Positions 31,894 through 55,499 of a stretch of 57,061 bases of DNA are shown here, piece after piece. Under the pieces are notes generated by a model. It was not told the DNA's origin, did not search any database, and saw only the letters and a program-made list of their open reading frames with translations. The DNA comes from Candidatus Bathyarchaeia archaeon (GTDB lineage: Archaea > Thermoproteota > Bathyarchaeia > Bathyarchaeales > Bathycorpusculaceae): the NCBI GenBank assembly GCA_049515895.1, contig JBEKTQ010000027.1:1-57061 (forward strand), in the 5' to 3' direction. Position 1 is the stretch's first letter, and the number at the start of each line of letters is the position of its first letter. The translations under genes were made by a program, and so were the position numbers.

Positions 31894-31899
31894 AAACCA

Positions 31900-39723: not shown

Positions 39724-40287
39724 TTGGACAGACCCGCCCTCATACTTGTAGATTTGCAGAACGATTTTGTTTCGGGACCGATGAAGGTTGACCGCGCCAT
39801 GGCCATCGTAGCGCCACTTCAAAGACTCGTCACCACCTCCCACCTGAACAACATCCCCGTCGTATACAGTGTCGACTCACATTACCCTCAGGACGTTGAA
39901 GTCGTGATGAAGTGGGGCAAACACGCCATAAAAGGCACCGAGGGCGCGCAGGTCATAGCCGAGTTGAAACCCGACGAAGCCAAAGACTACATCGTCGAGA
40001 AACGGACCTACAGTGGCTTCTTCGAGACCGGTTTAGACTCGCTTCTGCGGAGCCTGTACAGGGGTGAAGGCGCAAAAACCGTGGTCCTCGGCGGCCTACA
40101 TACACAGTTGTGCATACGCCACACCGCAGCCGACGCCTTCTTTCGCGGATACCGAATAGTCGTAGTTAAAGACGGCGTTGAAGCATTCACCAAAGAAGAC
40201 CAAGAGCAAGGCCTAAAGTACCTAGAGCACGTTTATGGCGCAAGAATCTTGCCCGTTGACGAAGTAATATGGGAACTTGTCAGGTAA
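39724..40287 (+). CDS. Isochorismatase / cysteine hydrolase
   Basis: VDLQNDF, KRTYSGF, GLHTQLCIRHTA. Confidence 0.92.
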   Translation: MDRPALILVDLQNDFVSGPMKVDRAMAIVAPLQRLVTTSHLNNIPVVYSVDSHYPQDVEVVMKWGKHAIKGTEGAQVIAELKPDEAKDYIVEKRTYSGFFETGLDSLLRSLYRGEGAKTVVLGGLHTQLCIRHTAADAFFRGYRIVVVKDGVEAFTKEDQEQGLKYLEHVYGARILPVDEVIWELVR

Positions 40288-40388
40288 GCAAACGCGGGGA
40301 GTCTTCGCGCGGTGGAAACTCCGGGAAATTTGTTCTTTGTGTTTTGGGTTGCTTTTTTGGAGTGGGGCTCGAATCGGCTGCAACCGTC

Positions 40389-40428
40389 ATCTAGAAACAT
40401 CTAAAAACATCTAGAAAGATCTAAAAAA
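40389..40428. repeat. 10-bp tandem repeat x4 (ATCTARAAAV)
   Basis: atctagaaac atctaaaaac atctagaaag atctaaaaaa. Confidence 0.85.
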
Positions 40429-40550
40429 ATCGCGGGGAAATGCTTGTCGAGAAGTGGAAGTTGACTTGGTTTTGCGATGTTTGTCGCAGAAATTTGTTCA
40501 TTGTGAAATGGGTTGCTTTCTTGCAGCAAAGCTTGGATTGGTTGCAGGTT

Positions 40551-40650
40551 GCGTCAACTAAAGTCAACTATCGTCTGCTAAAGTCAACTAAAGTCTACTA
40601 ACGTCAACAAAAGTCAATAGAAGTCAATAGAAGTCTGAAAAAGTCAATAA
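40551..40650. repeat. 10-bp tandem repeat x10 (consensus AAGTCAACTA)
   Basis: gcgtcaacta aagtcaacta tcgtctgcta aagtcaacta aagtctacta acgtcaacaa aagtcaatag aagtcaatag aagtctgaaa aagtcaataa. Confidence 0.92.
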
Positions 40651-40655
40651 ATCAT

Positions 40656-41039
40656 TTAGATAACAAATTCAACGCCTTCCAAGCCTTTGAACCATTTGTC
40701 CCCAGTCAGAAATTTTATGTTAGACTTTTTTGCAAGATAATATCCCAACGCATCGGCATAAGATATGTCACGACCATTTTTCTTTAGCTTTAACCAAAGT
40801 TTCATTGCGCCCTCAATATCGGCTACCCCGAAATCCGTCACAAATTTAGCAAACGCTTTAACCACCTGAGAGGCGGCTTGTGCTCCGTGAACTTCAAGAG
40901 TTCGATAGTATATTTCCATTAAATTTAGCTTGGTTAAAATGCCGTCATTTTCTTCGAAAAAAGGCCTGTATTTTGGGTTGTCACTAAGATAAGCAAGAAC
41001 AGCATAGCTGTCATAGAAGAACCGTTTAGCTTTCTGCAA
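40656..41039 (-). CDS. vapC: VapC/PIN toxin
   Basis: FFYDSYAVL, NLME, ISYADAL, FLTGD. Confidence 0.9.
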   Translation of the reverse strand: MQKAKRFFYDSYAVLAYLSDNPKYRPFFEENDGILTKLNLMEIYYRTLEVHGAQAASQVVKAFAKFVTDFGVADIEGAMKLWLKLKKNGRDISYADALGYYLAKKSNIKFLTGDKWFKGLEGVEFVI

Positions 41040-41040
41040 A

Positions 41041-41247
41041 TCATGCCCAGCCGATTTTCATTTCGTCTTTCTCATGCTGCAAGTCCTTGAAAGGATATTT
41101 GCCTCTGAGACAACTCACGTCAGATGATTTTCTCACTATTACTTCTACTTCTTCGTCTTCTTTGAGCCCTTCTTCGTCAACCAGTGTTTTCGGCAACACG
41201 ATGCCTAACGAATTTCCCCAACGCTTGACTTTTGTCTTCGCTATCAT
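41041..41247 (-). CDS. AbrB/MazE-family antitoxin
   Basis: KVKRWGNSLGIVLPK; directly upstream of the PIN gene. Confidence 0.9.
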   Translation of the reverse strand: MIAKTKVKRWGNSLGIVLPKTLVDEEGLKEDEEVEVIVRKSSDVSCLRGKYPFKDLQHEKDEMKIGWA

Positions 41248-41312
41248 AATTAGACATGTATAACTACACAGATTTAAAACTTGCTGACCGCTGCATAAAG
41301 ATAGAGACAAAA

Positions 41313-41350
41313 TGGGCCCGCTGGGAACCGACTCTGTGCAGCCGCCTTTT
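41313..41350 (-). repeat. tRNA-3'-end-like att remnant, copy A
   Basis: Minus strand ..GGTTCCCAGCGGGCCCA; 27/38 ungapped identity to 49978-50015. Confidence 0.5.
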
Positions 41351-41390
41351 ATACTATTTTTCCTGTTTTTTGTTTTTTTATTTTTGTCCT

Positions 41391-41885
41391 TTAGATTTGC
41401 TTATCCCAGCCTTCGCCGAATTTCTCGTCTGCTCGCTTTTTTTGCTCTCTCAGATGAACCATAGCGTCATCCAGCCGCAATACACCTGCAAATAAGTCAA
41501 CATTTTCAGCGATGGCACAGACATTTGCTTCCCACTTGCTGTTCGCATCGAATCTATGAACATCTAAGTTAACCAAGTGCTCGAGTAGTTTTCCGCCCTT
41601 AGTAACTAAGTCAACCGAAATGAAGTAGGCGTCGCCCACCTGAGACTTTACCTTCCTAACCGCCATTTCTTGTTCATTTGCATGTTCTTTGTACCAATGC
41701 TCCTTGTACGCCTCATAGCCGCTTAAGGTTTTGGGCGCAGTAAAGTTGCAATTTTCCCACAAAGGTTGTCCCGGAGTAGGCGTCAAATATCTTTTGTTTG
41801 TGCAATATAGTTTATCATAATTATTAGAAGGCTTTGGAGCACCATCCAGCAACTTCCTAACGCTAAATTCTTCCTTTTTAGACAA
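41391..41885 (-). CDS. Hypothetical protein with a putative C2H2-type zinc finger
   Basis: YC..CNF..Y..HW..EH; purine-rich SD. Confidence 0.65.
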   Translation of the reverse strand: MSKKEEFSVRKLLDGAPKPSNNYDKLYCTNKRYLTPTPGQPLWENCNFTAPKTLSGYEAYKEHWYKEHANEQEMAVRKVKSQVGDAYFISVDLVTKGGKLLEHLVNLDVHRFDANSKWEANVCAIAENVDLFAGVLRLDDAMVHLREQKKRADEKFGEGWDKQI

Positions 41886-42020
41886 CTGAATTTCCCCTCT
41901 CTTCTTCCTCTTTTAATTATTTACTTTTTGTAAAACTGTATTTCAATTTAACGCATGTCCGACACTCTTCCCCATCATCGTCAGGTTCTTGTTCTATTCC
42001 AGTCGGGAAATTTATGATTT

Positions 42021-42419
42021 TTATTTCCCAATATCATTTAGCACTGATGCTTTAATGGCGGGTGTTGCCTTTTTGATTAGCTGGAGGTCTTCGGTTATTA
42101 GTTGCAATTCTTTGAGTCTGGCCAGGTAAACGTATGAGGCATCGTAAAATGTGGTTTTCAATTGCATTGCCGATTCCAGTATTTCTTCTTCATTGCCCTC
42201 TATCGGTATGACTTCCATTAGATTTAGCGTGTGCTTTATTGACTTTAAGATCATTTTTGCTTCGTCTTTTGAGATTTTGGCCTGCAAGAAATAATTTTTC
42301 CAAACAATGTTTCCCAGTTCATACCTTGCTAGCTCCAAAGTAAAGTTTCCAACTAACAGGTCGATTTTGTTTTCTTTAACAACTCTAAATATGGCTGAAG
42401 AATCAAACAGGTACTTCAT
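42021..42419 (-). CDS. vapC: VapC/PIN toxin
   Basis: YLFDSSAI, YELGN, TFYDASY, LITED. Confidence 0.92.
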   Translation of the reverse strand: MKYLFDSSAIFRVVKENKIDLLVGNFTLELARYELGNIVWKNYFLQAKISKDEAKMILKSIKHTLNLMEVIPIEGNEEEILESAMQLKTTFYDASYVYLARLKELQLITEDLQLIKKATPAIKASVLNDIGK

Positions 42420-42646
42420 TGGCTTTCTCTATCTTCTCTTATGCTACTAACTATATCTTCCATGCCTACTTTCTCGAGAATGGGTTTTAATCTGATTATT
42501 TCTTGCTTAAGTTGTTCCGCTTCTTTCCTTTTTATTTCATCTTCGATAGCTTTTCGCAATATTTTGGATGGTTTGATCTTGAGGGTTCTCATTTTTTCTT
42601 TGAGTTGTTTAGGAATTTTTGTAGAAACTGTTACGCATTCGGGCAA
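42416..42646 (-). CDS. RHH-type antitoxin (VapB)
   Basis: VTVSTKIPKQLKEKM..SKILRKAIEDEI..IREDRE; ATGA overlap with vapC. Confidence 0.85.
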   Translation of the reverse strand: MPECVTVSTKIPKQLKEKMRTLKIKPSKILRKAIEDEIKRKEAEQLKQEIIRLKPILEKVGMEDIVSSIREDRESQ

Positions 42647-42873
42647 TTTCTCACAAAAAGGTAGTAATGAAAGTAAGTAAAAAATGTTTCCAATTTTTCT
42701 TACCTTTTGAGTTTTCTTATCGCGACATAAATATGGCAGCAGAGCCGATGCTTGGAAGCTGAAGCAATTCATGGGTTTAAAACCATTTGACAGCACAGCT
42801 AGTCTTGTTCAACGGAGCTGGGAAGAAAACGAGAAGACATTTACCCGCCTTAGCGGGGAACTTCGTTCAAAAA

Positions 42874-43161
42874 TTAAAGCTTTAGCGTTTCGTTTCTCTC
42901 TTCAACATTCATGTATCTTCTTAAACACAACTCGTAGTCGCTACATTTTCCTGGCTCCGAGCAGCTGAAAAATCCGACGCAATCATTGAGGGATTCCTCC
43001 ACTTTCAAGTCGGTCAATACAGGTAAATTTATCTCAAATTCTTGAGGTTTTGCTTTTTGAGGGGCCTTCCCTTTACCCCTAGATTCAAAATATTCCTCAA
43101 CTTTTAAGTCAGTTAACATCGCTAAATCTGTGTCAAATTCTTGGGTTTTACGAGAGGCCAC
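42874..43161 (-). CDS. Small protein with an internal ~20-aa duplication and a C-terminal Cys cluster
   Basis: QEFDTDLAMLTDLKVEE / QEFEINLPVLTDLKVEE; CVGFFSC..C..YELC. Confidence 0.65.
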   Translation of the reverse strand: MASRKTQEFDTDLAMLTDLKVEEYFESRGKGKAPQKAKPQEFEINLPVLTDLKVEESLNDCVGFFSCSEPGKCSDYELCLRRYMNVEERNETLKL

Positions 43162-43174
43162 TCCATTTCTTCCC

Positions 43175-43330
43175 CTATTCTATAAGTCCGTGTTTTTGGA
43201 GGACCTCTACAACATACCTATTGTATCTCTCTTCTTCTACCCGCTGTTGCAGGAAGGCTCTAGCTTGTGCCAGAACCTCGTTTCTTTGAGAATCAGAGAG
43301 TTCAAGCAAATTAACCGTTATTTTCTCCAT
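43175..43330 (-). CDS. 51-aa microprotein, paralog B (not in ORF track)
   Basis: MEKITVNLLELSDSQRNEVLAQARAFLQQRVEEERYNRYVVEVLQKHGLIE*. Confidence 0.7.
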   Translation of the reverse strand: MEKITVNLLELSDSQRNEVLAQARAFLQQRVEEERYNRYVVEVLQKHGLIE

Positions 43331-43352
43331 TCCAATTTCACCACATTAAGGT

Positions 43353-43538
43353 TCAATAATTTTCTTCTAACTCGTTTAAATCAGCTACGACTTCATCCTC
43401 GTCTAGAATTGACGCTGAAATACGCCTATAATATCTCTCTTCTTCAACTTGCTCGTGCAGATAGGCTCTAGCTTGCGTCAATACTTCGTTTCTTTGAGAA
43501 TCAGAGAGTTCAAGCAGATTAACCGTTATTTTCTCCAT
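43353..43538 (-). CDS. 61-aa microprotein, paralog A
   Basis: MEKITVNLLELSDSQRNEVLTQARAYLHEQVEEERYY...; DNA near-duplicate of 43255-43333. Confidence 0.7.
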   Translation of the reverse strand: MEKITVNLLELSDSQRNEVLTQARAYLHEQVEEERYYRRISASILDEDEVVADLNELEENY

Positions 43539-44081
43539 TCCATTTCGCCCATACATAATGAATATGATATCTTAATAAATCACTTATTTCAACTACAAAC
43601 ATATATCCAAATTTGATACATCCTAAAAGCTATGGAATTTTTTCAGAGACTTTCCCCGCATTAGCGTTTCCTTTGATCGTTGAAACTCCCCAAAACTCCG
43701 CCTGCACCACAACAAACTTAACATCATCCAAAAATTGTAGAAACAGTTTGCCTGTACTAACTCTAAGAAATCTCAGGTGCGTCTTCCAATGCCTAATTCA
43801 AAAGGAGCGCGCGCTCCCCCTTAAAAATCTCCCATTCAGTAGTGGCATCTTAAGCTAAAATAACTTTTGCTTTGAGCGCGCATTCACATGGTGCACGATG
43901 TATATCGCTACATGTGAAGAACGTTTAATAGGTAAAACCATCAGCTAACAGGTAGTCCCAAAAACCCTCAAGTGGACTAAAGGACAAGTCAGTGGTTTGG
44001 CTCCCTTATAATCTCCCTTCTCCCCCGCCAAACCACTTTCTTGCTCTTTCCCTCATTTCAAACATAAGGAAGAAAATAAGA

Positions 44082-44492
44082 ATGATGAAACTGACCCCTT
44101 ATCTTCTATTCAATGGCACTTGTAAACTTGCGATGGAGTTCTATCAATCTTGTTTTGGAGGAGAACTGAATCTCCAAAAAGTTGGTGACTCTGCCATGAA
44201 GGATCAGATGTCGCTTGCAACGCATCAAAAAGTACTCAATGCACATCTCAAAAGCAAGGTTGTCGAAATTTCAGCCTCAGATTGGCTGCGACCGGACCGA
44301 ACACCGATACAGGGCAATACGGTGTGTCTTTACCTTAGCGGCGGAACTCCAAAGGAACTCAGAGAATTCTTTGGCAAACTTTCAGATGGAGCCGATGTAA
44401 CTGACCCTCTTAAAGAGATGTTTTTTGGCATCTACGGGGCGCTGAACGATAAATTTGGTGTCCGATGGATGTTCCAAGCAAACAAGAGTTAA
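44082..44492 (+). CDS. VOC/PhnB-like glyoxalase family protein
   Basis: LTPYLLFNG.C..AMEFYQSCFGG, FFG.YG...DKFGVRWM. Confidence 0.92.
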   Translation: MMKLTPYLLFNGTCKLAMEFYQSCFGGELNLQKVGDSAMKDQMSLATHQKVLNAHLKSKVVEISASDWLRPDRTPIQGNTVCLYLSGGTPKELREFFGKLSDGADVTDPLKEMFFGIYGALNDKFGVRWMFQANKS

Positions 44493-44649
44493 ATCGACAG
44501 CGTGAAAGGGTATTTGGCACTGTGTAAAACTGAGCTGAGCCGAACTTGAACGGGTTAAAGCCACTCTTTTAGTCAACAATTTCCTACAGGTCTAAGCAGG
44601 ACTGCCCGTTACTGAATCCAAAAGGAATAAGCATTAGAGGTGTCGTCAA

Positions 44650-44803
44650 TTGGGTTGTTATCTTGGGTTTACTACAGTGAAAAGAGTGGCACGATCATTG
44701 CAGAGCTTATGATGTCAGCTACCATGTGTGTGAACCGACTAACTGCGACATTGCGGCTTCTCGCAAATATGAAGCCGTAAAAGAGGCTGTCAAGAAACGT
44801 TAG
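44650..44803 (+). pseudogene. Putative 50-aa Cys/His microprotein with a +1 frameshift
   Basis: GAGGTG SD; removing one A from GTGAAAAGAG gives MGCYLGFTTVKEWHDHCRAYDVSYHVCEPTNCDIAASRKYEAVKEAVKKR*. Confidence 0.4.
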
Positions 44804-44866
44804 GCGATATCTGCTCCTACGATTAAAGGGTGCCCCGAGAAAAGAAAAAAAGAGAAATTTTTACTA

Positions 44867-45070
44867 TTAATGTTTAGATTTTTGCGCCAACGCCGCTGCT
44901 GCTACAATTGCAATTATCACACCAAGTCCGATAACTGTCCAGTATAGGTAGGTAATGCTCTCCTTAGGGATGACATAGCACCAAAGCAACGAAACAAGTA
45001 CCACCAAGATACCCAAAAAAAGTTCTGCCCCTGCAAAAGCCTTATTTGCTGCCAATCTTTTTTCCCCCAA
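44867..45070 (-). CDS. Small two-TM membrane protein
   Basis: Two hydrophobic helices. Confidence 0.6.
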   Translation of the reverse strand: MGEKRLAANKAFAGAELFLGILVVLVSLLWCYVIPKESITYLYWTVIGLGVIIAIVAAAALAQKSKH

Positions 45071-45183
45071 AAAAATATGACGGCATCATCTTTTATGTTT
45101 TGCTATGCTATCCTTGCGCTGCGGGATGCCACTTAGCGCGTGCCAATTTGGTGTCAGGTGTAGGCGCCTGTTGACATGTTTTG

Positions 45184-45663
45184 TTACGCTGGTTGTGCTA
45201 CTGGCGGCATTAGTTTTGCATTATCCAAACCATAGCATAAGTGGTTGTCATAGTCTCTGAAGGTGAATATGGTTCCTGAAAAGGAGACTACTTCTGGTCC
45301 GTTTGCAAAGGTTGGAGCACTCAATCCCTCTGATACTGATGAAGACAGATCTGTGATGAAATTTGAGGAGGATGTTATATTTGTTGATGAAACAATGTAA
45401 ATTATTGTTCCGTTGGGCAAACTCAGACCTGAGTACACATCGTTGCTTATTGTTATTCCCCAAACCAAAGGAACGGATGTGTTTGTTCCAGGCTGCGCAA
45501 GCTGTGGCGGTGATACTGAACTCAACGTGCCTTGGTAGGTGCCGGCTGGCAACGTTGGACTAAAAGCGAAGGGATGAGGATGCAAAACCAATTCAATGAC
45601 TACGAGAAGCAATATTATTGCAATAATTATTATGAAAATCGAAATAATGTTCTTCTTGTTCAT
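45184..45663 (-). CDS. N-terminally anchored extracellular hypothetical protein
   Basis: Hydrophobic N-terminus, Ser/Thr-rich body with NxS/T sites. Confidence 0.7.
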   Translation of the reverse strand: MNKKNIISIFIIIIAIILLLVVIELVLHPHPFAFSPTLPAGTYQGTLSSVSPPQLAQPGTNTSVPLVWGITISNDVYSGLSLPNGTIIYIVSSTNITSSSNFITDLSSSVSEGLSAPTFANGPEVVSFSGTIFTFRDYDNHLCYGLDNAKLMPPVAQPA

Positions 45664-45884
45664 TTTCTTTCTCTGAACTCTTAATCTAACTAAGCCAATA
45701 TTAGCTTATACTTTTGAATTCATGTTTGGAGCCAGTTGGCAAACCTTTTATTCGCTACATTTAAGCAAGCACAACGGGGTAATAAGATGGATGGAAAAAA
45801 CTCCAATTTCTAATCTTACTCGCAAGATTAGCAAAATAAGCAACGCACTGGCGCGCGAAGAAGCCTGAGCCGTGAAGTTGCTGC

Positions 45885-46280
45885 TCAGGTGCCTGACTTT
45901 GGCGGCATCATGCTGCCTAGCAATTCGGTCAGAGGCGGCGTACTTATCGGTTCGTCTTCCACGATTTTTTCGTCAGCGAGACGGTAATAGGTGATGACTC
46001 GTGCAGAGGCCTTTTTTCCGCTGGCGAGGGTGATGTTCATGTTGCCCCGAAATACGACCGCATCGCCTTCGGCTACTATATCCGCGATTTCAAAATCGCG
46101 GGTCGGCGCAGCGGCCTTCAGACCGGAAATCATAGCCTTGAAACCAGTGCGATTGGTGACGCCCATACTCGGATTCACATAATTTGGCGCAAGCAATTCG
46201 TCGATAAGGTCGATATTGCCACCGCCCAACACCTCTGTGATGAATCTGCGGACGATGGCTTTGTTCCTATCAGTAGTCAT
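45885..46280 (-). CDS. SnoaL-like / NTF2-family protein
   Basis: RNKAIVRRF, DELLAP, IVAEGDAVV, YRLADEKIVE; GGAG SD. Confidence 0.88.
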   Translation of the reverse strand: MTTDRNKAIVRRFITEVLGGGNIDLIDELLAPNYVNPSMGVTNRTGFKAMISGLKAAAPTRDFEIADIVAEGDAVVFRGNMNITLASGKKASARVITYYRLADEKIVEDEPISTPPLTELLGSMMPPKSGT

Positions 46281-46540
46281 TTAAAATTCTCCTATACCGT
46301 GAGATGGTCACGCAGTCAATATAACTCTATTGGCTCACATTGTCACGGAAGGCAAAGGAATCGTAACCACCAAGAATCAAGAGCACACAATTACGCCTGG
46401 AATGATAGTTTTTGTTTCTCCGGGAGAGGAGCATTAGCACGGAGCCACCAAAGATTCATCCTTTGCCCACCTATCCATAATCGGCCAGCCTCATGAAATG
46501 AAGACAGTGGAAAAATAATCAGATTCGGGCCTGCGCAATG

Positions 46541-46804
46541 TCAAATGGCGCATACCGGTCCTTTTTGAGCGCTCAATATGACTGAAGTTACTGTGCTCTT
46601 AATGCCCTTGATCTTCATTATTCTTTTTTTCAGGACATCGCTTAATGCCTCAATATCCGAGGCCGACACAATCGCAACGACGTCAAATTCGCCTGTTACC
46701 TCGTAAAGTTCCTCTACTACGTCTATCTGAGAAAGAGATTCAATCACCTCATCCATTTGCGACGACTCGACAAAAATGTTTACCAAAGCATGTAATTCAT
46801 GCAC
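46541..46804 (-). CDS. Lrp/AsnC ligand-binding domain protein
   Basis: YEVTGEFDVVA..IKGIKSTVTS. Confidence 0.9.
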   Translation of the reverse strand: MHELHALVNIFVESSQMDEVIESLSQIDVVEELYEVTGEFDVVAIVSASDIEALSDVLKKRIMKIKGIKSTVTSVILSAQKGPVCAI

Positions 46805-47138
46805 TTAACTCACCAACAAATTCGCAGAAACTCTTTAATCTTCCACTGACGAGGCAACTATTGTACTTTTCCTAGACCATCTTGGCTCGCGAGAATAAAA
46901 TTGGAAGGGAAAGTGGGACGTGAGTGCCATTCACTTATAACTTTGGGATCCATCAAAGCCGATTTAGTCCTGGTTCTGCCAGCGAACTACGGCTGGGGAG
47001 CCCGATGGGCGACAGACCATAGTTTTCTGAGTTTAACGAGATTTTGATTAGTTTTCTTCAATATCCAGCTATCAGAAGATATTGTTAAGTGATTTGTGGA
47101 AGTTAATGTCAACCAGCAATCAATTTTGATGAATAACT

Positions 47139-47551
47139 CTAACTATTCAGAACATTTAGCATTTCCTCAACTGTTAGGATTTTTATCCCTTTGAATTCTT
47201 TCAACGAAAGCAGGTGCCTGTCGCCTGAAACAATGTAGTCAGCTTTGCCATCATAAGCAGCTCGTATAATAATGTCATCGTCAGGGTCTTCCGCTATAAC
47301 CCTAAACTTGGACTTTACTTGCGTAAATTTGCCTATTCGACTCAAGTCAGCTAAGAACAACTTAACATCAATTTCTGTCACATATTTTTCAAACTTTTTA
47401 CGGCTCACAACATTAACGAACTCTGAAGACATTTCTTCCGATAATTCGAGAGTAAACTCATTGTTTTTTGCCCTGCGCCAAAGTTCCTGAGGCTTCCTAC
47501 GACTATCAAACTGGAAACCAGCACATTAATGTCGAAAACTACGACAATCAA
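47139..47551 (-). pseudogene. PIN-family toxin with a 1-nt deletion near 47495
   Basis: MIVVVFDINVLVSSLI in one frame and KPQELW...EDPDDDIII..ADYIVSGDRHLL in the next; span 413 nt. Confidence 0.85.
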
Positions 47552-47565
47552 GTAATTCCCGATTC

Positions 47566-47865
47566 CTATGCCTTTTTAGCTCTTGCAGCCTTCTCTTTTC
47601 TGTATTTTTGTATTTCCTCTTCTATGTCATCTTGCGTTAACTCGCCGTATTTTGCTATTCTTTCATCGACTCTTTTGTACATGGCTTCAATCTCTTTCGA
47701 GAAGTCCGGCTCTTCAAATTTCTTCAGTATCACCGCGTCGTCGCATTCATATACTAAGAATTTAGTTTTAGGTTTGAGACCCATCCGTAATCTTATTTTT
47801 GCAGGTATGACAACTTGACCTTTTTCGCTGAGAATCGTAAGTTCTGCCTTTTCACTTTGAGTCAT
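47566..47865 (-). CDS. AbrB/MazE-family antitoxin
   Basis: LSEKGQVVIPAKIR..GLKP. Confidence 0.9.
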   Translation of the reverse strand: MTQSEKAELTILSEKGQVVIPAKIRLRMGLKPKTKFLVYECDDAVILKKFEEPDFSKEIEAMYKRVDERIAKYGELTQDDIEEEIQKYRKEKAARAKKA

Positions 47866-48114
47866 TCGTTGCTCCAATTATCATCTTACATTCTTACCTA
47901 AATAGCTATCTGTGGCAAAGAAATTCTTCAGGTAGGCCTGGTGAAGAATTCCCTGCGCTTTAGACAGTGGATTGAATTGCTGTTATGTCCTGAACTCACC
48001 TGTGCAAGGTATTTTTCGTTGGCCAAATTTTTCATGTCAACAATACCTTAAAATATTTTAGTGTTACTTTGCATTATACGCTGTATTTGCGCGTAATTAA
48101 CAGGTGATGGCTTC

Positions 48115-48351
48115 ATGGTAAAAAATGTTATAAATTTGGATGAAAGAGAAAACCGAGTTATCAATATAGTCAAAGCAAAGTATGGGCTGAAGGATAAAAA
48201 TCAAGCTTTAAGCATAATTATTAAGCGATACGAAGAGTGTGAGCTTGAACCTGAGCTTAGACCCGAATTTGTTAAGGGAATAGAGGAAACTGTGAAGAAA
48301 GGCAAATTCATCAAAGTCAAGGATTTCGCGGAAGAGTATGGGCTAAAGTGA
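48115..48351 (+). CDS. DUF2683-like antitoxin
   Basis: NRVINIVKAKYGLKDK..EPELRPEF; GGTGA SD. Confidence 0.85.
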   Translation: MVKNVINLDERENRVINIVKAKYGLKDKNQALSIIIKRYEECELEPELRPEFVKGIEETVKKGKFIKVKDFAEEYGLK

Positions 48352-48355
48352 TAGC

Positions 48356-48616
48356 TTGTACAGCCTTGAAATCGAGGAAGAGGTTTCTAAGACTTTTCGG
48401 AAGCTCCTTAAGAAAGACAGAATGCAATTAGAGGCCGTAAATAAGAAAATCAACCAAATCCGTTCCGATCCATACCAATTCAAACCCCTAAAACATCCCT
48501 TGGAAGGTCTCCGCAGAGTGCACATTGGATCTTTTGTGCTCATATACAGAGTAATAGAAAGCCCACCAACTGTTCAAATAATAAAGTATGCACATCATGA
48601 CGAAGCATACATCTGA
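48356..48616 (+). CDS. RelE/ParE-family toxin
   Basis: FKPLK..LEGLRRVHIGSFVLIY..HHDEAY. Confidence 0.9.
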   Translation: MYSLEIEEEVSKTFRKLLKKDRMQLEAVNKKINQIRSDPYQFKPLKHPLEGLRRVHIGSFVLIYRVIESPPTVQIIKYAHHDEAYI

Positions 48617-48720
48617 CATTTTTCGACTTACTCCAATGGAGTTATTTTTGTATTTTAAACCGGGGTTCGAGGGTGTTTCCGCTGAGTTCTATGTTTCATT
48701 GTTCTGCAGAAAGCTTTGTT

Positions 48721-48760
48721 TTAGGTGACAAATTCAACACTTTCCAAGCCTTTGAACCTC
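48721..48760 (-). pseudogene. 3' remnant of a vapC paralog
   Basis: Encodes RFKGLESVEFVT*, matching WFKGLEGVEFVI* at the end of vapC 40656; DNA near-identical over ~30 bp. Confidence 0.6.
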
Positions 48761-48830
48761 GGCCCGGTCTTGTGAGACTGGTGCGCGGTGTTATAATAAT
48801 GATTACAAAAGAGTAGTATTAGCAAATGTT

Positions 48831-48851
48831 TTATAGTAATTTGAACTATAA
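48831..48851. promoter_or_regulatory. Inverted-repeat operator before the AbrB-VapC pair
   Basis: TTATAGT-N7-ACTATAA immediately upstream of the antitoxin start. Confidence 0.45.
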
Positions 48852-48859
48852 TATAGTAG

Positions 48860-49129
48860 GTGAATATAGTGGCTTATGAAGTTAAAGTCACCCGACAATG
48901 CCAAACAACGATCCCCAGTGCAATCAGAAAAAAATATAAAATTGATGAGGGAGACAGCATAATCTACGTTGACTTAGGCGACCATATAGCTATCGTGCCA
49001 GTATCAAAACAGCCCCTTAAAGATTTGAAAAATCTAAAAATAGACGTTAAAGAATCCGTTTCCGAAATGCGTGCAGAGGCACTGCAGACAGCGCAAAGGC
49101 TTGCAGATAGCAAACTAAAAGGTGACTAA
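48860..49129 (+). CDS. AbrB/MazE-family antitoxin
   Basis: VKVTRQCQTTIPSAIRKKYKIDEGD. Confidence 0.88.
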   Translation: MNIVAYEVKVTRQCQTTIPSAIRKKYKIDEGDSIIYVDLGDHIAIVPVSKQPLKDLKNLKIDVKESVSEMRAEALQTAQRLADSKLKGD

Positions 49130-49547
49130 AATCCTAATCGCATCGGATCTCTTGCTGGCAATTATCAAAAAAGAGGACCGATTAAAACCCGTTGCCGAGA
49201 GAATCCTTGAGAAGATAGATTCAGGGGAACTCAAAGGCGTCTACGCCTCGACAGCGGTCCTTCAAGAAATCATATTTTGGTTTTACAACAGACAATTGCA
49301 CAGTGAACTTGCCAAAGCCGTGAACGTCCTATCGCATTTGCATAACGTAGAGTGGATTCCAATAACCCCCGAGGTATGTCTTACTGCTTCACTGTTGATT
49401 AACGAATACAATACCTCACCCTTCGATGCCTACCATGTGGCGACTGCAATACCCAGAGACAAAACAATCCTAAGCACGGAACACATATACGATAAAATCA
49501 AGGGAATAACAAGAGTAGAACCGGCCGAGTTTTCTAAAAATCTCTAA
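49122..49547 (+). CDS. vapC: VapC/PIN toxin
   Basis: VYASTAVLQE, SPFDAYHVA, ILSTE..YD; the usual first Asp appears replaced (ILIASD). Confidence 0.85.
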   Translation: MTKILIASDLLLAIIKKEDRLKPVAERILEKIDSGELKGVYASTAVLQEIIFWFYNRQLHSELAKAVNVLSHLHNVEWIPITPEVCLTASLLINEYNTSPFDAYHVATAIPRDKTILSTEHIYDKIKGITRVEPAEFSKNL

Positions 49548-49558
49548 CTTGCAAAATG

Positions 49559-49599
49559 TGGCGGGCGGCGAGGGATTTAAGCCCTCATTTGAACCCTCG
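49559..49599 (-). other. tRNA 3'-end fragment (att-like) with a 12-bp internal duplication
   Basis: Minus strand CGAGGGTTCAAAT[GAGGGCTTAAAT]CCCTC GCCGCCC G CCA = T-arm, acceptor strand, G73 and CCA. Confidence 0.75.
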
Positions 49600-49623
49600 G
49601 GTATGGGTCGGGTCGGAAGAGCT

Positions 49624-49876
49624 AAAAACAAAGAAAATACCGCCGATTCCCGAGCTAATCAACGAACTCAAACTCTACGGGTACAAGACAACGCCAAGCG
49701 GAAACCTGCAGTATGGAGCGCCAGAGCGCTACCATGACGACTGCGTTACAGCTTTAGCATTAGCTGCATGGCAATTACAGCGCACTCCGCCTCAAGGAGT
49801 AGGCGCATTCTTCCTTCAACACCAAGAACTAAAGAAAAAAGGCAACATATTCGACCACCCCTTCTTTCACCAATAA
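49624..49876 (+). pseudogene. Terminase large subunit, C-terminal nuclease fragment
   Basis: ELINELKLYGY..PSGNLQYGAP..YHDDCVTALALA; no ATPase domain upstream. Confidence 0.8.
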
Positions 49877-49972
49877 AAGCTACAGCTTAATCAGCGACCG
49901 CTCGAAAAAATATGGCTCTTAAAAAATAAGAAAAGAGGATGGATAAATGAGGCTACAGAAATTCGCAATTAG

Positions 49973-50015
49973 AAAGGCGGGTTCGATGGGAACCGATGCT
50001 GAACGACCGCCTTTG
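49973..50015 (-). repeat. tRNA-3'-end-like att remnant, copy B (hairpin-forming)
   Basis: AAAGGCGG...CCGCCTTT inverted ends; minus strand GGTTCCCATCGAACCCGCC; homologous to 41313-41350. Confidence 0.5.
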
Positions 50016-50366
50016 TAATGTTAATTTCCCTCTTTTTCTTAAAAGCAGGTCAAAAAACAATATTTAATGGCACTATTGGAGCTTTTAAATAAGCCATAAC
50101 TGCATTATCGAGTTATCGTAGATTAAAAAATTTTGTATTTTTGTCAAATTCACTAAGGATAACAATTGAAATGATGTAAGCAAAGACAGAGCAATTCCAT
50201 TTTAGAACACTCGCATCGTAGTTCCTACGTAATGTCCCACCAAAACCCTCCCAAAAACCGCTTCGCTTGTGAGAGCGACACTTTCAGGAGATGGCTTTTG
50301 GAAAACAAACAAACAAGCAATTTGAACTTTTATATATACGAAAAGCTGATAGAATTTCAGGTTGAT

Positions 50367-52085
50367 TTGGAGAGTATGACAACTATCATAAATCTTCTTG
50401 AGCGTATAAAAAATGGCGAAATAGTACTTCCTGCAATTCAACGAGATTTCGTGTGGCCTGAAAATAAAATTGAAAAGTTACTTGATTCGGTAATGAGAGG
50501 ATATCCCATAGGCATTGTCTTTCTGTGGGAAACATACAATGATGTTCAATACAGAGATTTCGCTTTAGATTATTTGTCAGATTCAAGATTTGTTTTTCAC
50601 GATAATGAAAAACAAAAAAGACTAAATTTGGTCTTAGATGGTCAACAACGACTTCAATCATTGTATGTTGCTTTGTACGGGACGCATGAGGGTAAAGATT
50701 GCTATTTTGACGTTCTGAGTGGTCGAGAGACTGAAGATTTCCGGGAGGACAAATATGTTTTTAGCTTTTTAGCTGCAGAACAAGCGAAACAATTGAACGA
50801 CTTTTTTGTATCTAGTTCTCAGGAGAAGGAGGTCAGAGAAGGCGACAAGTATGAACCTTCTTATTATTACAAAACTAAAGATTTGCTTACAATGGGAGCC
50901 AGAGAAACCCAACAATTACAAATTGAACTCGGCAAGAAACTTGGCCTAACAGAAGAAGACCAGTTGAGACTAAATCTGAATTTTAACCTCCTGCGCAATA
51001 CATTTGCTTCAGAGCCTCAAATTTTAACAGCGACAATACTGGATGAAAACAAACCTAAAGATAGCCCTGACCGAAAATCAGAATCTGATGTATTGGAAGC
51101 ATTCGTGAGAATTAATCGAGAAGGGACTCCATTAACTAGGTCCGACCTGATATTTTCTATGCTGAAATTGACTTGGAAGGAATCAGCGAGATCTTTGCCA
51201 GACTTCGTGGACAACATAAATAAGGGCAACAATTTTGAGTTAGATTCAGACTTTGTGATTCGGTGCTTATTTGCTGTTTCCGATTTGGGTACAAAGTTTG
51301 ACGTTGACTTATTGAGAAAAAAATCTAATGTTCAAGCCATTAGGGGAAATTTCAATAAATGTTGTGATGCGATATCCTCTACTTTTGATTTTGTGCAAGA
51401 CGACTGTTGGATCTTGAGCAGCAGACTTCTTGGAGGATACTATAATCTTGTCCCAATAGTCTATTACTTGTTCCATGCGAAAAGCCACCAAGTACCTATA
51501 AACGAAGTTGAAAATGTCCGTAAAGCCGTCTACATTTTTGGTTTTACGTCGCCGTTCTCCAGGTACGCGGACAGCAGACTTGGAGGAATCATACGCAATG
51601 CACTGAAACCTACTATTGAAAGAAACGACACGAGATTTCCACTGAAACTAGCAATTTCGTGGGTCAAATATTGGGAGAATATTACAGATTATGGTCCGGC
51701 GCTTCTTCAGAATAATCCATTACTCACCTTGCACTTAGTTCAAAGACGTTCAGGCGCGAAAGTGCATTATGATAAGAATACTCCTCAGATTGACCACATT
51801 TTTCCAGCATCAGTCTTACGAGGCATGGGATATGATGAGATGACAATAAACAATTTTGCTAATTTCTGGATATTGGCAAAAAACCTGAATCAAAATGATA
51901 AGCGTGCGAAGGACCCAGCAACGTACTTCGCCAATGTTGATGATTCAATCCTTTCGGAAGCATTCATCGACCGAAAGCTGCTAGATTACGGCTCATTCAC
52001 AACATTCCTTGCAAAACGACAACAAGCTATCTTAGATCACGTCAAAAGAGAATTGAAAATTACAAGTGCTGATTTCATAACTTAA
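50367..52085 (+). CDS. GmrSD-like (DUF262 + DUF1524/HNH) restriction endonuclease
   Basis: LPAIQRDFVW, LDGQQRL, FVRINREG..L, IDHIFP..NFANF..LN; start 50367 TTG or 50376 ATG. Confidence 0.9.
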   Translation: MESMTTIINLLERIKNGEIVLPAIQRDFVWPENKIEKLLDSVMRGYPIGIVFLWETYNDVQYRDFALDYLSDSRFVFHDNEKQKRLNLVLDGQQRLQSLYVALYGTHEGKDCYFDVLSGRETEDFREDKYVFSFLAAEQAKQLNDFFVSSSQEKEVREGDKYEPSYYYKTKDLLTMGARETQQLQIELGKKLGLTEEDQLRLNLNFNLLRNTFASEPQILTATILDENKPKDSPDRKSESDVLEAFVRINREGTPLTRSDLIFSMLKLTWKESARSLPDFVDNINKGNNFELDSDFVIRCLFAVSDLGTKFDVDLLRKKSNVQAIRGNFNKCCDAISSTFDFVQDDCWILSSRLLGGYYNLVPIVYYLFHAKSHQVPINEVENVRKAVYIFGFTSPFSRYADSRLGGIIRNALKPTIERNDTRFPLKLAISWVKYWENITDYGPALLQNNPLLTLHLVQRRSGAKVHYDKNTPQIDHIFPASVLRGMGYDEMTINNFANFWILAKNLNQNDKRAKDPATYFANVDDSILSEAFIDRKLLDYGSFTTFLAKRQQAILDHVKRELKITSADFIT

Positions 52086-52158
52086 CTTGTTCTTTTTTCT
52101 TTTTTTGTAGACTTGACTAAGAAGCAGCGAAAAGCACAAGTAATATCAAATGTGTCGT

Positions 52159-52685
52159 TCAAGTTAACCCATACTCTTTTCCTTGTTCAATCTCCTGCAT
52201 TTGGCTGCAGAATGTTTTGAACAATCGTTGATTCTCTGTATGGACTGGAAAAGCCTTCTTGGGTTGAATTTCATTGACCACTTCGACCAATTGTTCCTTG
52301 CTCATATGCCCTGATGCATGAACTTGATGGAAGTGCATTTTAAAGTGGTCAAGCCAATTATGCATGACTCGGTCTTCAATATCTTCCTCGCTAAACGGTT
52401 CACTCATACTGTGGATAAACTCGCTTCCTGCTTTTGGTTTTATATCAATAAGTTCAGCAAACTGGTAGAAGTCCAAGTCCATTATGAGTTTGCCTTGATT
52501 CCTGTAAACATACTTACAGTCAACCATCTTATTCATGAACTTGCGTTCCCAAGCGAAATAATCCTTCTCATCGTAAGTCCCAGACTTCTTTTTCTTGTAA
52601 TACACGCGAATGCAATCATCTTTAAGCGGGTCTGGAACGTTTAGGTGCTCATCTCCCAAAAGTTTGGTCAAGAGGTAAGCAGATT
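52159..52685 (-). pseudogene. C-terminal fragment of an MBL/beta-CASP RNase J-like hydrolase
   Basis: FIHSMSEPF, VHASGH, PVHTE present; N-terminal HxHxDH half absent. Confidence 0.8.
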
Positions 52686-52956
52686 CCAATAATCTCTCCA
52701 ACGCCCACGAAACCTTCGCCAACACCAGAGTTTCCTACTTTTATTGCCGCTGCAATGGTTTTCATAGCATCAACAGCAGGAATATTATTCTGCAAAAAGA
52801 AAAGCATACCAAACTCTAACTATAAGGATTTAAAGAATTGATAAACTATAAGATGAGAGGCAGACTGTATCTAAAATTTTGTGAAGTTAAGGCAGTCCAA
52901 GATTTCAAAGAACGAAAAATTCTAAGGCAAAAACTCTAAGGCAAGTTTTTGTTTCA

Positions 52957-53748
52957 TCATTCTTTAAGTCCTAGTATATGAGCGATGTATCTGCCTGATT
53001 CGGTTACGTCGATGTAGTTTAGCCGACCAAGCTTTTCTCTTGTAATGTAACCATTTTTCTCGAGTTTGCTCAAGACGGCTTTGTTAAGGTTTACAAGATT
53101 CTTTTGTTGAGCCTTTCGCCTTTTTCCTTGCTCAATCTTGCCTTCATCCTCAAAGAGCTCTATCTTCTTCGAGACGAGAAGCTTAACAATCTCATCGGTT
53201 CGCATATGTTTGCCCTTCAAACATAGATTGACTAATACTATTCTGCCCATGACGTCAGGCAAGCTTATTTGGAAATTCTGAATAAGTTTAAGGTTCAATT
53301 TATCGCAAACACTTAATCCGTGGAGATTCTCTTCTTCAGCTGTGCTCGGATATCCATCGGCTGATACATAATACACTTTAGCATTATGAGCCATCCCAGC
53401 TAGACTTGCACCTAAAGAGGTTAGTTTACCTGCAGCAGACATGTTAACATAGACATCATTTCCTTTACTCTTTTCAAGCCTAACAAGCTCGGCCACTCTC
53501 TTCATTACTTTCAAAATATCGAAAATATCTATGGTCGTCTCTAAGTAGACATCTATGCCCTTCTCTTTCAGAGCGTTTTCAACGGCTTTATTGTAGTACT
53601 CTTGTTTGCGGTTCATTTCTTTTGGATAATCTGAGCTTAAAGTGGTGAGAAGATAGACTCGATTTGCCTTGAACCTTTCAAATGGTTTTACAGCTCTATC
53701 TATTTCAAACCCTAATGGAATAATGTGGACGTTTTCTCCAAAGTCCAA
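52957..53748 (-). CDS. DUF6293 / HFX_2341-like CARF-related wHTH regulator
   Basis: VHIIPLGFEIDR, YVNMSAAGKL, C-terminal LSKLEKNGYI..VTESG. Confidence 0.8.
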   Translation of the reverse strand: MDFGENVHIIPLGFEIDRAVKPFERFKANRVYLLTTLSSDYPKEMNRKQEYYNKAVENALKEKGIDVYLETTIDIFDILKVMKRVAELVRLEKSKGNDVYVNMSAAGKLTSLGASLAGMAHNAKVYYVSADGYPSTAEEENLHGLSVCDKLNLKLIQNFQISLPDVMGRIVLVNLCLKGKHMRTDEIVKLLVSKKIELFEDEGKIEQGKRRKAQQKNLVNLNKAVLSKLEKNGYITREKLGRLNYIDVTESGRYIAHILGLKE

Positions 53749-53849
53749 TTAAATCACCCAATGTTAAACTTGTTTAACTCGTTTTGTTCGTTTTCCAAGA
53801 CACTGCTATCTTGCCTGATTTCGTTAATTAAATTATTGGAGGAAAAAAA

Positions 53850-54193
53850 ATGCAAAAAAACATCAACCCATTTGACCGTAAGCTACCACAAATATCAGGC
53901 AGGAAATTGGTCGAAATACTGTGCAATGGCTTTGGCTGCCAAGTGATTAACATCCGAGGAAGTCACTTTACGTTAACCCGCAGGATTCACCTATCCAAAA
54001 TTTTTTTGTCGTACCAATGCACCAAAAAATAGAGACTGGAACACTTAGCAGAATTCTGAGAAATTCGGGCATAACTAGAACTGAATTCTTTGAATACTTT
54101 CTTCAACTATCTGGAAAAAAGAGTACTCCGAAAATTAAACCATCAAACTCTTATGGAGGTGAAAACTATTGGACTCAATCGAATTCTCAGTAG
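53850..54193 (+). pseudogene. hicA: HicA-family toxin with a -1 frameshift near 53980
   Basis: KLPQISGRKLVEIL..GF..RGSHFTL in one frame; VVPMH..IETGTLSRILRNSGITRTEF in the next. Confidence 0.8.
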
Positions 54194-54522
54194 ATGGTTT
54201 TCCACCAGCATACGACTCAGCACTTTCAATTTCGAACAAGAACCACAAACGTTACCCATTGGTAGTAAAATTGCAAGAGGTAGCGAGAGCTGCAATGAAT
54301 GGAAATGAACTAATCCAAGGAGACTTAAAAATGGAAGTTAAGTGTGAAGCAACTTTGGAACATATGGGAACAGATTGCATTAACCTGATAGGTGGAATCG
54401 GAAACAGTCTTCAAGGAGTTATTTACTCAAACGACAATCAGATAAAAGGAATACACTTCAAGCAACTTCTTTCCAATCAAAATCGATACACCATCAGAAT
54501 AAGCAAAGTTGGGCATTATTAA
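54169..54522 (+). CDS. RusA-like fold protein with a degenerate active site
   Basis: GGAGGTGA SD; DCINLIGGIGNSLQGVIYSNDNQI resembles RusA DxDN..K..DAL.G..Y.DDxQI. Confidence 0.65.
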   Translation: MDSIEFSVDGFPPAYDSALSISNKNHKRYPLVVKLQEVARAAMNGNELIQGDLKMEVKCEATLEHMGTDCINLIGGIGNSLQGVIYSNDNQIKGIHFKQLLSNQNRYTIRISKVGHY

Positions 54523-55474: not shown

Positions 55475-55499
55475 TTTCCAGAAGAACCTTATTTTGCCG

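Follow-up and report, generated by a model that had tools for sequence, protein, structure and literature searches.

Toxin-antitoxin cassettes and tRNA-Arg remnants in a Bathyarchaeia chromosome: probably the decayed distal part of an array accreted at a tRNA gene

A stretch of 57,061 nucleotides (nt) from Candidatus Bathyarchaeia archaeon (contig JBEKTQ010000027.1 of assembly GCA_049515895.1, forward strand), here termed the window, contains a run of small toxin-antitoxin (TA) modules together with sequences that resemble the 3' halves of arginine transfer RNA (tRNA-Arg) genes. Our preferred interpretation, to which we assign a probability of roughly 0.6, is that this run is the decayed distal part of an array accreted at a tRNA-Arg gene, within which the AbrB-PIN unit would be a mini-element that is not autonomous and may have been inserted in trans. 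The array probably occupies 40.3 to 50.0 kilobases (kb) and continues to the window end. Three sites, termed A, 49559 and, less surely, B, are best read from their sequences as co-oriented remnants of tRNA-Arg 3' halves, and hence as putative old attachment (att) sites. An earlier note on this DNA had proposed a tRNA-att cassette array formed by serial accretion; the array architecture, the synteny breaks in relatives and three of the sites as scars agree with that proposal, while the integrase it relied upon was not found and its fourth site (46994) is not a scar.

The window is a piece of archaeal chromosome, with core genes that include RadA (31831-32943; protein relatives at 81-94% identity), NFACT, an aldehyde:ferredoxin oxidoreductase (36514-38433), an M24 peptidase and an isochorismatase (39724-40287). 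Rightward of ∼40.3 kb, in the right third, the guanine-plus-cytosine content is lower and the gene content changes. This variable region holds five TA pairs, a GmrSD/HEC-05 gene, a CARF-wHTH gene, RusA and several gene stumps (Pfam, PADLOC); its modules are mostly type II TA pairs, joined by the last 79 codons of a terminase gene and by other gene remnants.

The AbrB-PIN cassette and tRNA-Arg sequences in relatives

Comparisons were made with 26 loci, fetched by one genome-collection scan with the PIN toxin encoded beside site A, a protein with more than 370 close relatives. Nearly all of the loci are from Bathyarchaeia metagenome-assembled genomes, with some from Nitrososphaeria, and the best PIN protein identity is 90%, so that the window's own genome is not among them; the tRNA matches given below for sites of the window are accordingly matches to tRNA-Arg genes of relatives. 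In the window, Pfam recognizes MazE_antitoxin (1.8e-9) at 41041-41310 and PIN (1.5e-5) at 40656-41039, with 1 nt between the open reading frames (ORFs). The predicted layout is of the VapBC type, in which a small antitoxin gene abuts a PIN gene in one operon.

The cassette is found at 67-91% nucleotide identity in 18 of the 26 loci, and as a partial copy in one more (L020). The conserved block starts at 40649-40656, a few bases from the PIN stop codon, in 14 of these 19 loci, and its other end falls at 41265-41326, just upstream of the promoter. ARAGORN called six tRNAs in the loci, five of which are tRNA-Arg genes on the cassette strand and upstream of the cassette (TCT in L003, L013, L017, and L019; GCG in L014), and in L014, L017, and L019 the gene abuts the cassette promoter. 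Three or more distinct tRNA-Arg sequences (TCT of L003, TCT of L017, and GCG of L014) are followed by the cassette at a distance of 16-62 nt, and its orientation is fixed.

Two further tRNA-Arg(TCT) genes, at ∼4309-4407 in L001 and ∼3519-3617 in L004, carry an intron after the anticodon and were missed by ARAGORN; both head module arrays, and the downstream fragments in these arrays begin after the intron position. Introns have been proposed to protect tRNA genes from integration (PMC3119797), an idea with which array-heading, intron-containing tRNA-Arg genes sit oddly.

Partial copies of tRNA-Arg were located by a Smith-Waterman scan of the 456.7 kb of loci, with the last 48 nt of three tRNA-Arg genes as query. 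At a score of at least 24, a threshold on which all fragment counts in the relatives hinge, the scan returned 36 hits, of which 29 share the strand of the cassette and 7 are in the opposite orientation. A tRNA-Arg gene or 3' fragment ends 268-374 nt before the PIN start in 11/26 loci, and a downstream hit lies 8-142 nt after the PIN stop in 5/26; together, these two zones make up 1.9% of the loci sequence. The resulting direct repeats are 15-45 nt long and run from the anticodon loop or variable loop to the tRNA 3' end (the longest being 44-45 nt), an extent that does not single out the T-loop, the crossover point suggested earlier. The array of L003 reads tRNA, 1.77 kb, 44-nt fragment, cassette, 39-nt fragment, core genes, and that of L017 reads tRNA, cassette, 44-nt fragment, 2.3 kb, fragment. 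In L001, L003, and L017 the cassette has att repeats on both sides and no recombination genes. Additionally, two tRNA-Arg(CCT)-like halves of L016, 765 nt apart, enclose a PIN pair unrelated to the cassette.

Gene order in the relatives breaks at these fragments. Between L003 and L004, the upstream core gene and the tRNA are homologous, the DNA from the tRNA 3' end to the pre-cassette fragment is unrelated (1.9 kb versus 6.1 kb), and beyond the fragment the cassette (89.7%) and the downstream core genes (83.7%) match again. The pairs L003/L013, L001/L004, and L001/L003 break in the same manner, and a shared cassette with unrelated tRNA-side DNA in these four loci points to one old cassette insertion and to different, younger insertions beside the tRNA. 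In comparisons of L005 with L006 and with L015, the cassette alone is common (91-92%) and the flanks are unrelated; L017 and L019 have just the tRNA and the cassette in common. The coincidence of fragments with synteny breakpoints, on which the earlier note had staked its proposal, is therefore borne out among relatives, where the breaks fall at the tRNA 3' end and at the fragments. In L010 the terminase remnant, AbrB/PIN_3, and RHH/PIN of the window recur in the same order but more closely packed, which indicates gain or loss of whole modules. In the relatives, then, the scars are tRNA-derived, they border the cassette, synteny breaks at them, and integrase genes are absent.

Two other features of these arrays were observed. 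In L003 (7810-7887 versus 10389-10427), the oldest scar keeps the acceptor-strand base of the living L001 and L004 tRNA genes, and both members of this base pair are altered in the L003 tRNA; the scars are in effect fossils of the compensatory evolution of the tRNA. In L006, a repeat of ∼190 nt (6900-7090 and 8560-8760) precedes two different TA pairs.

Candidate tRNA-Arg remnants in the window

All four of the tRNA-end-like strings reported earlier are present on the minus strand where they had been placed, except that site B begins at 49976 and not 49978. These are TCCCAGCGGGCCCA at 41313-41326 (site A), TCCCATCGAACCCGCC at 49976-49991 (site B), CCCATCGGGCTCCCCA at 46994-47009, and, at 49559-49586, a full T-arm with CCA, which reads as a 5-bp stem, a 7-nt loop, 7 nt, G, and CCA. 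As tRNA sequences they are faint. ARAGORN reported 0 tRNAs for the whole window, neither intron-containing tRNA genes nor a tRNA-Arg 5' half were found in it, and Rfam returned nothing for the window at the gathering score and, at E≤10 for 40000-57061, no tRNA match and just two marginal, unrelated ones. An nhmmer profile built from 19 good fragments of relatives assigns expectation values (E) of 0.23 to 49559, 1.9 to B, and 7 to A. Compared by Smith-Waterman with the 3' ends of three tRNA-Arg genes, 49559 scores 34 (the best in the window), A scores 26, and B and 46994 score 22 each; the corresponding null of 40 shuffled windows gave 4.7 hits of at least 22 and 0.23 of at least 26, with one shuffle reaching 35. 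The hits are nevertheless clustered, as 7/11 of those scoring at least 22 fall inside 41.2-50.1 kb (8.9 kb), against a null mean of 0.9 and a maximum of 3 in 40 shuffles (binomial p 4e-4). The three candidates that border modules of the window (A, 49559, and B) are decayed and co-oriented, and are backed by position and homology rather than by score; the other junctions have none. Several alignments of decayed sites were made by eye.

The 3' part of site A is identical at 13/13 positions to the T-stem and acceptor of the L014 tRNA-Arg(GCG) gene, and 41299-41326 matches L005 9715-9742, the fragment and flank upstream of the L005 cassette, at 27/28 positions (E 1.6e-7), with the T-loop still present in L005. 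To the left of the T-loop, site A is unlike L005, a dissimilarity compatible with an exchange at that point or perhaps with differential decay. Its position is that at which 11/26 loci carry a tRNA-Arg gene or fragment upstream of the cassette. From these alignments, site A appears to be a genuine decayed att scar, positionally homologous to the L005 fragment.

The 49559 fragment is identical at 19/21 positions to the tRNA-Arg(TCT) 3' end of L017 and L019. A second copy of a 12-mer (the 5' half of the stem plus the loop) follows at 49587-49598 and matches the copy within 49559-49586 at 10/12 positions, and the 16 nt next to the fragment resemble the flank of a pseudo-tRNA in L016. The fragment lies at the broken end of the terminase large-subunit stump, and it borders the block that accounts for the extra 1.7 kb between the terminase stump and the AbrB/PIN_3 pair in the window relative to L010. 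The stump has 58 full-length relatives of 202-430 amino acids (aa; most ∼400) with Terminase_6N/6C; homology begins at residue 34 of the open frame (∼49637), and a terminase remnant is also present in L010 (229-312). One of the terminase relatives (P0003) and one PIN relative (P0073) both have 46,739 nt as their longest contig, and may be encoded together on it.

Site B was matched by hand at 14/16 positions to the last part of the L003/L013 tRNA-Arg(TCT) gene (Smith-Waterman 22 over 16 nt), and its layout is the same as in L016, in which the pseudo-tRNA occupies 1705-1775 and the 3' end of a terminase gene comes next, at 1810. A tRNA-Arg scar is a plausible reading of site B, held less surely than for A and 49559. 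The L016 pseudo-tRNA is a near full-length, decayed tRNA-Arg(GCG)-like pseudogene with a recognizable D-arm and a mutated anticodon loop; it adjoins the 3' end of an intact-looking terminase gene and received no ARAGORN call. That terminase was considered as a close relative of the window stump and rejected at just 27% identity, so that the similar layout does not stem from the same provirus.

Sites A and B also resemble each other. The claimed ungapped similarity of 27/38 is real, although the measured figure is 27/36, or 29/45 over a longer alignment, and the motif GGGAACCGA-N2-CTG-N5-CCGCCTTT, a pattern derived from these two copies, occurs exactly twice in the window, in A and B. A targeted local alignment of the pair scores 34, against a mean of 17.4 and a maximum of 24 for shuffles (0/300 reach 34). 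The pair is too short to be listed by window-wide self-blastn at E≤1, which does list the PIN stump and internal repeats, and it is collinear with a second repeat, that of the PIN 3' end (39 nt at 90%, E 7e-8). Both sites lack ∼5 nt of the T-loop, and they are ∼75% identical in the arm beyond it (17/23) and in the tRNA part (10/13) alike. Such equal divergence points to two copies of one already decayed fragment, and not to one arm joined by related integrases to the ends of different tRNAs, as the earlier note had supposed. The shared derived changes make A and B look, at the sequence level, like copies of a single decayed fragment instead of independent remains of live tRNA, which would agree with transport of the site by an element, or with its duplication.

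The arm itself, previously taken for non-tRNA sequence, is probably the decayed part of the same tRNA half that extends from the anticodon loop to the variable region: in a MAFFT alignment, the related stretch of the near full-length L016 pseudo-tRNA aligns with the anticodon loop of the L014 tRNA-Arg(GCG) gene, in a weak argument given the gaps that the alignment needs. Nor does the arm define a family of its own among the relatives. The fixed-spacing motif is absent from all 26 loci, and allowing up to 5 mismatches yields 4 hits against 3.5 expected, none of them real; this form of the motif also missed the related L016 site, which was recovered by alignment.

The fourth string does not belong with the others. 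A 454-aa ORF of L006 (11026-12390, minus strand) matches 46937-47020 by tblastn with an interior segment of 28 aa at 89% (E 5e-11), and nucleotide identity to this ORF is 94.6% over 74 nt; site 46994 thus lies within a protein-coding remnant and is not a tRNA scar. The earlier note also placed two of the sites in hairpins. Site B has a 13-nt imperfect palindrome (49968-49980 / 50007-50019, 12/13; fold z-score -1.9 on the plus strand), and the 46994 region folds strongly (z -3.6) but belongs to the coding remnant; the folds of A and 49559 do not surpass those of shuffled sequence. With a hairpin in B alone, a terminator or small-RNA reading of A and B was ruled out.

A second copy of the AbrB-PIN-type cassette has left a stump in the array. 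Its 39-nt core (48720-48758) is 90% identical to 40655-40693, and 48705-48758 (54 nt) is 90.7% identical to L005 10347-10400. It is followed by ∼48660-48686, which looks like a strongly decayed tRNA-end-like stretch when compared by eye, and so without a score of its own, with the fragments that follow the PIN stop codon in L001 and L004. Two plus-strand candidates might mark an inverted array segment. One is the possible fragment at 42751-42796, and the other is a tRNA-Arg(TCT) 3'-end-like stretch (score 24) enclosed by a 23-nt inverted repeat at 43979-44049 (83% complementary, arms 25 nt apart) upstream of a glyoxalase-like gene.

Evaluation of the accretion model and its alternatives

For the window, we infer a recombinase, mobilization in trans and an order of events, along the lines of established integration at tRNA att sites. 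A circular DNA with a tRNA-like att site would recombine with the 3' half of a tRNA-Arg gene. The tRNA would be rebuilt by this recombination, with the newcomer directly behind it, and the displaced 3' half would be pushed away along with all earlier inserts. Repeated rounds would produce a row of modules separated by co-oriented 3'-half scars, which would then decay. Because the scars of the window are all on the minus strand, the tRNA gene is expected beyond its right-hand end. The AbrB-PIN unit, at ∼0.65 kb and lacking a recombinase, would be a non-autonomous mini-element, inserted in trans by an integrase encoded elsewhere, for example that of proviruses using the same tRNA-Arg att site, and its TA genes would stabilize the captured DNA. 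Its fixed orientation and tight borders, and its presence behind no fewer than three distinct tRNA-Arg sequences, favour a mobile unit; no integrase, empty site, circle or identical repeats were seen, and the mobility is hypothetical.

Searches for the tyrosine integrases that had been named as agents were uniformly negative. No integrase was found among the window genes (Pfam and related searches; no PF00589 protein), in the 77 stop-to-stop frames of at least 55 aa in the island (E≤0.01), in the 143 ORFs (71 + 72) of 170 aa or longer from the loci, or in 29 small ORFs inside array modules of relatives. The sole mobility gene in the loci is a DDE (insertion sequence) transposase in L013. A split integrase of the type found in Sulfolobus spindle-shaped viruses (SSV) was considered and rejected, as the ORFs that overlap fragments (L017:10385-10693 and window 49538-49876) have no integrase match and the window ORF is the terminase stump. 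The orphan 164-aa ORF, conceivably a hidden recombinase, had no hit in Pfam, PHROGs, or PADLOC, no usable hit in the Atlas, no tblastn hit in the 26 loci, and no look-alike.

Several observations weigh against the accretion of a mobile cassette. No recombinase was found in the window or in any of the arrays examined, and no empty site, circular form or free copy of the cassette was seen, nor any match in phage or plasmid collections. All direct repeats are diverged, and nothing suggests that the cassette moved recently. Orthology of the cassettes in L001, L003, L004, and L013 makes them one old insertion, which lowers the inferred number of independent insertions from 11 to ∼4-6. At threshold 24, 15/26 loci have no fragment upstream of the cassette and 21/26 have none downstream, and in L006, the closest array, the other TA junctions carry no fragment. 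Within the window, the sites taken singly are near noise as tRNA fragments (E 0.23-7), and a tRNA gene, even an intron-containing one, is absent; the target gene may lie beyond 57061.

As an alternative, larger elements with their own integrases could have entered tRNA-Arg genes serially and been whittled down by deletions, with TA pairs surviving since their loss kills, and with cassettes that never moved as units. The terminase stump, PIN stump and coding remnant of the window speak for such a history, as do the capsid or terminase genes near the cassette in L011 and L016, and both integrase-gene loss after integration and tandem integration are described in archaea (PMC8371274, PMC6563490), along with the degeneration of elements trapped at tRNA genes in Sulfolobales (PMC3119797). 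We nevertheless consider it unlikely, as independent deletions are not expected to halt at the same borders each time, and the same ∼0.65 kb unit recurs in its fixed orientation 16-62 nt behind different tRNA-Arg sequences. L005, L006, and L015, moreover, share just the cassette between unrelated flanks, and a second, unrelated PIN pair fills the 765-nt interval between fragments in L016.

Homologous recombination offers a less probable route still. The 15-45-nt tRNA-like repeats could be substrates for a RadA-type activity, by which modules would be popped out, reinserted and shuffled between tRNA-Arg loci with T-arm and acceptor sequence in common, and no site-specific enzyme would be needed after the first insertion. 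The lack of an integrase in the window island and the loci, the presence of GCG-type and TCT-type fragments in one window array, and the match of A with L005 to the right of the T-loop (27/28) and not to its left are all in keeping with this, and module exchange between tandem elements has been proposed for archaea (PMC8371274). It leaves the origin of the first tRNA-half duplication unexplained, however, and the repeats are not only short but also diverged. A defined att site would account just as well for the fixed orientation of the cassette and its tight borders, and the two mechanisms are not exclusive. Lastly, that the sites resemble tRNA by accident, as AT-rich intergenic DNA may, and that A and B match by chance, would accord with the weak nhmmer and shuffled-window statistics, the self-blastn miss and the fate of 46994, one of the four sites, as an accident in a coding remnant, but is very improbable in view of the island enrichment, the homology of A in position and sequence to the better-preserved L005 fragment, and the collinearity of A-B with the PIN 3'-end repeat.

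Accretion at tRNA-Arg, with the AbrB-PIN unit as a mini-element, therefore remains our preferred account of the window. Extended to Bathyarchaeia and some Nitrososphaeria as a whole, it would amount to an integron-like, tRNA-based form of gene capture, in which sub-kb cassettes without integrases, mostly TA pairs and each with a tRNA-Arg-half att site, are inserted in trans and serially at tRNA-Arg genes, so that the chromosome accumulates and reshuffles TA and defence genes and the scars record past tRNA sequence. We put this broader view forward tentatively, as a possibility that may well prove wrong.

Other modules and relation to known systems

The features of the array are collected in Table 1. 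The RHH-PIN cassette has a counterpart of 87% nucleotide identity in L006 (8826-9537), immediately upstream of the AbrB-PIN cassette of that locus, and it also occurs in L010; the AbrB / PIN_3 module has homologues in L006, L002, and L010, and the DUF2683 / ParE pair was not found in the 26 loci. The second AbrB-PIN pair (48860-49547) has no similarity to the first PIN, and membership of its PIN (49122-49547) in the family of the L016 PIN cassette was rejected, again for lack of similarity.

Table 1. Annotated features of the array region (positions in the window).
Feature	Position	Strand	Remarks
AbrB-PIN (VapBC-type) cassette	40655..41282	-	PIN 40656-41039; AbrB/MazE-fold antitoxin 41041-41247 (ORF open to 41310); promoter region to ∼41282
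Site A	41313..41349	-	Putative decayed tRNA-Arg(GCG)-type 3'-half fragment, old att site; T-stem/acceptor remnant 41313-41326, arm 41327-41349
Orphan 164-aa ORF	41391..41885	-	Between site A and next TA cassette; absent there in closest array L006
RHH(CcdA-like)-PIN TA cassette	42002..42713	-	Pfam
Possible tRNA-Arg(TCT)-like fragment	42751..42796	+ (opposite orientation)	Smith-Waterman 28, nhmmer E=0.97; no comparative support; uncertain
Coding-gene remnant	46937..47020	+	Encloses 46994 site
AbrB / PIN_3 TA module	47107..47911	-	PIN_3 47139-47432, AbrB 47566-47877; Pfam
DUF2683 / ParE TA pair	48115..48616	+	Pfam
Second AbrB-PIN-type cassette stump	48660..48758	-	Last 12 codons, stop codon, 15-nt trailer 48705-48758; tRNA-end-like stretch ∼48660-48686
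Second, unrelated AbrB-PIN pair	48860..49547	+	Pfam; sits where interior of 48705-48758 cassette was lost
Putative tRNA-Arg(TCT)-type 3' fragment	49559..49598	-	T-arm, acceptor 3' strand, G, CCA; tandem 12-nt duplication in T-arm
Terminase large-subunit remnant	49637..49876	+	C-terminal 79 codons; head-tailed provirus remnant
Site B	49976..50014	-	Candidate decayed tRNA-Arg-type 3'-half fragment; derived features common with site A; 100 nt from terminase stop codon
GmrSD-family / HEC-05 candidate defence gene	50232..52085	+	First module on tRNA-proximal side of B; Pfam GmrSD_N; PADLOC HEC-05 1.5e-70

To the right of site B, the stretch 50232-55474 continues after the GmrSD/HEC-05 gene with a truncated beta-CASP/RMMBL gene (52159-52725), a CARF3-wHTH gene (52957-53748), RusA (54169-54522) and a 261-aa ORF that is 91% identical to the ORF just upstream of the L002 cassette; no tRNA-like fragment was detected in this stretch. 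At the opposite end, between the last cassette and the core genes, 40325-40427 and 40489-40650 each consist of a conserved leader of ∼60 nt and 4-10 tandem 10-nt units that start with GTC or ATC and vary in sequence between copies. The same arrangement is present in L006 (∼2150-2620, two copies), L008 (9172-9330), and L010 (∼17990-18125), and could be an iteron-type binding array or an RNA gene, with no Rfam match. Internal direct repeats occur at 42993-43149 (58 nt, 78%, inside a 95-aa ORF at 42874-43161) and at 43217-43545 (121 nt, 87%); the region 42993-43545 could be assigned to no family and has weak hits to a phage baseplate-hub family below the cut-off.

Units inserted at tRNA genes are normally whole viruses, plasmids or islands that have their own integrase. 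The cis-mobilizable elements (CIMEs) of Firmicutes are flanked by attL/attR-type repeats, have no integrase of their own, and are thought to depend on that of a related element; they derive from integrative and conjugative elements or integrative and mobilizable elements, are larger, and are mobilized after accretion with a conjugative element. The cassettes described here are similarly att-flanked without their own integrase, but nothing conjugative was seen with them, and their mobilization is hypothetical. The islands linked to the ssrA (transfer-messenger RNA, tmRNA) gene in Dehalococcoides have their own recombinases. These islands build up as arrays through successive site-specific insertions into a single small RNA gene, always at its 3' end, copies of which recur between neighbouring islands; they differ in being bacterial, in using tmRNA instead of tRNA, and in being kb long (PMC3146451).

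Integration at tRNA 3' halves, tandem arrays, integrase-gene loss, tRNA fragments as scars, and vapBC pairs in variable regions have all been described (PMC6563490, PMC8371274, PMC3293823, PMC9897764, PMC3119797), including the 44-bp integration site of SSV1 in tRNA-Arg (PMC3293823) and tRNA fragments as att scars (PMC9897764). The arrays of the relatives share with tRNA-targeted archaeal element arrays the use of a tRNA 3' half (here, of tRNA-Arg), one full tRNA with co-oriented partial copies at the borders, re-use of the site, and decay (PMC6563490, PMC8371274). The described elements, however, range from kb to tens of kb and carry or once carried an integrase, whereas the units reported here measure 0.65-0.77 kb and consist of a TA pair alone, with no recognizable recombinase in the arrays examined.

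Integron arrays, clusters of attC sites lacking integron integrases (CALINs) and archaeal integrons are alike in their small, mostly co-oriented, promoter-poor or self-contained cassettes with one recombination site each, and in chromosomal integron arrays TA cassettes are common, the integrase is often not nearby, and cassettes can be moved in trans (PMC9668308). Integrons differ in having attC sites that are folded imperfect palindromes, an IntI integrase, and insertion at attI; here the sites are tRNA-Arg 3' halves of which B alone is palindromic, there is no PF00589 protein, and insertion is at a tRNA gene. An integron or CALIN was accordingly rejected, with attC assessed by visual inspection and by folding: the searches turned up no tyrosine recombinase, and A, 49559 and the fragments of relatives do not fold better than shuffled sequence.

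TA mini-cassettes that lack an integrase and have tRNA-Arg halves as their borders were not encountered in searches of the openly accessible literature, a negative that is no proof of absence, and the accessible text of work on Bathyarchaeia viruses and archaeal proviruses (PMC10848311, PMC11705971) makes no mention of them. Serial insertion at tRNA genes is textbook; here, by contrast, the unit that recurs is unusually small, no more than a TA operon and its tRNA-half site, and no recombinase was found in the arrays examined. Decayed att scars are recognizable only through comparison with relatives, and intron-containing tRNA-Arg genes escape a standard tRNA finder. The arrays, in which both the att sequence and the cassette are defined and natural variants are numerous, provide a test bed. 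If these cassettes are indeed moved in trans, they would constitute an archaeal route of cassette capture parallel to integrons, and this would help explain why TA and defence genes pile up at particular chromosomal spots.

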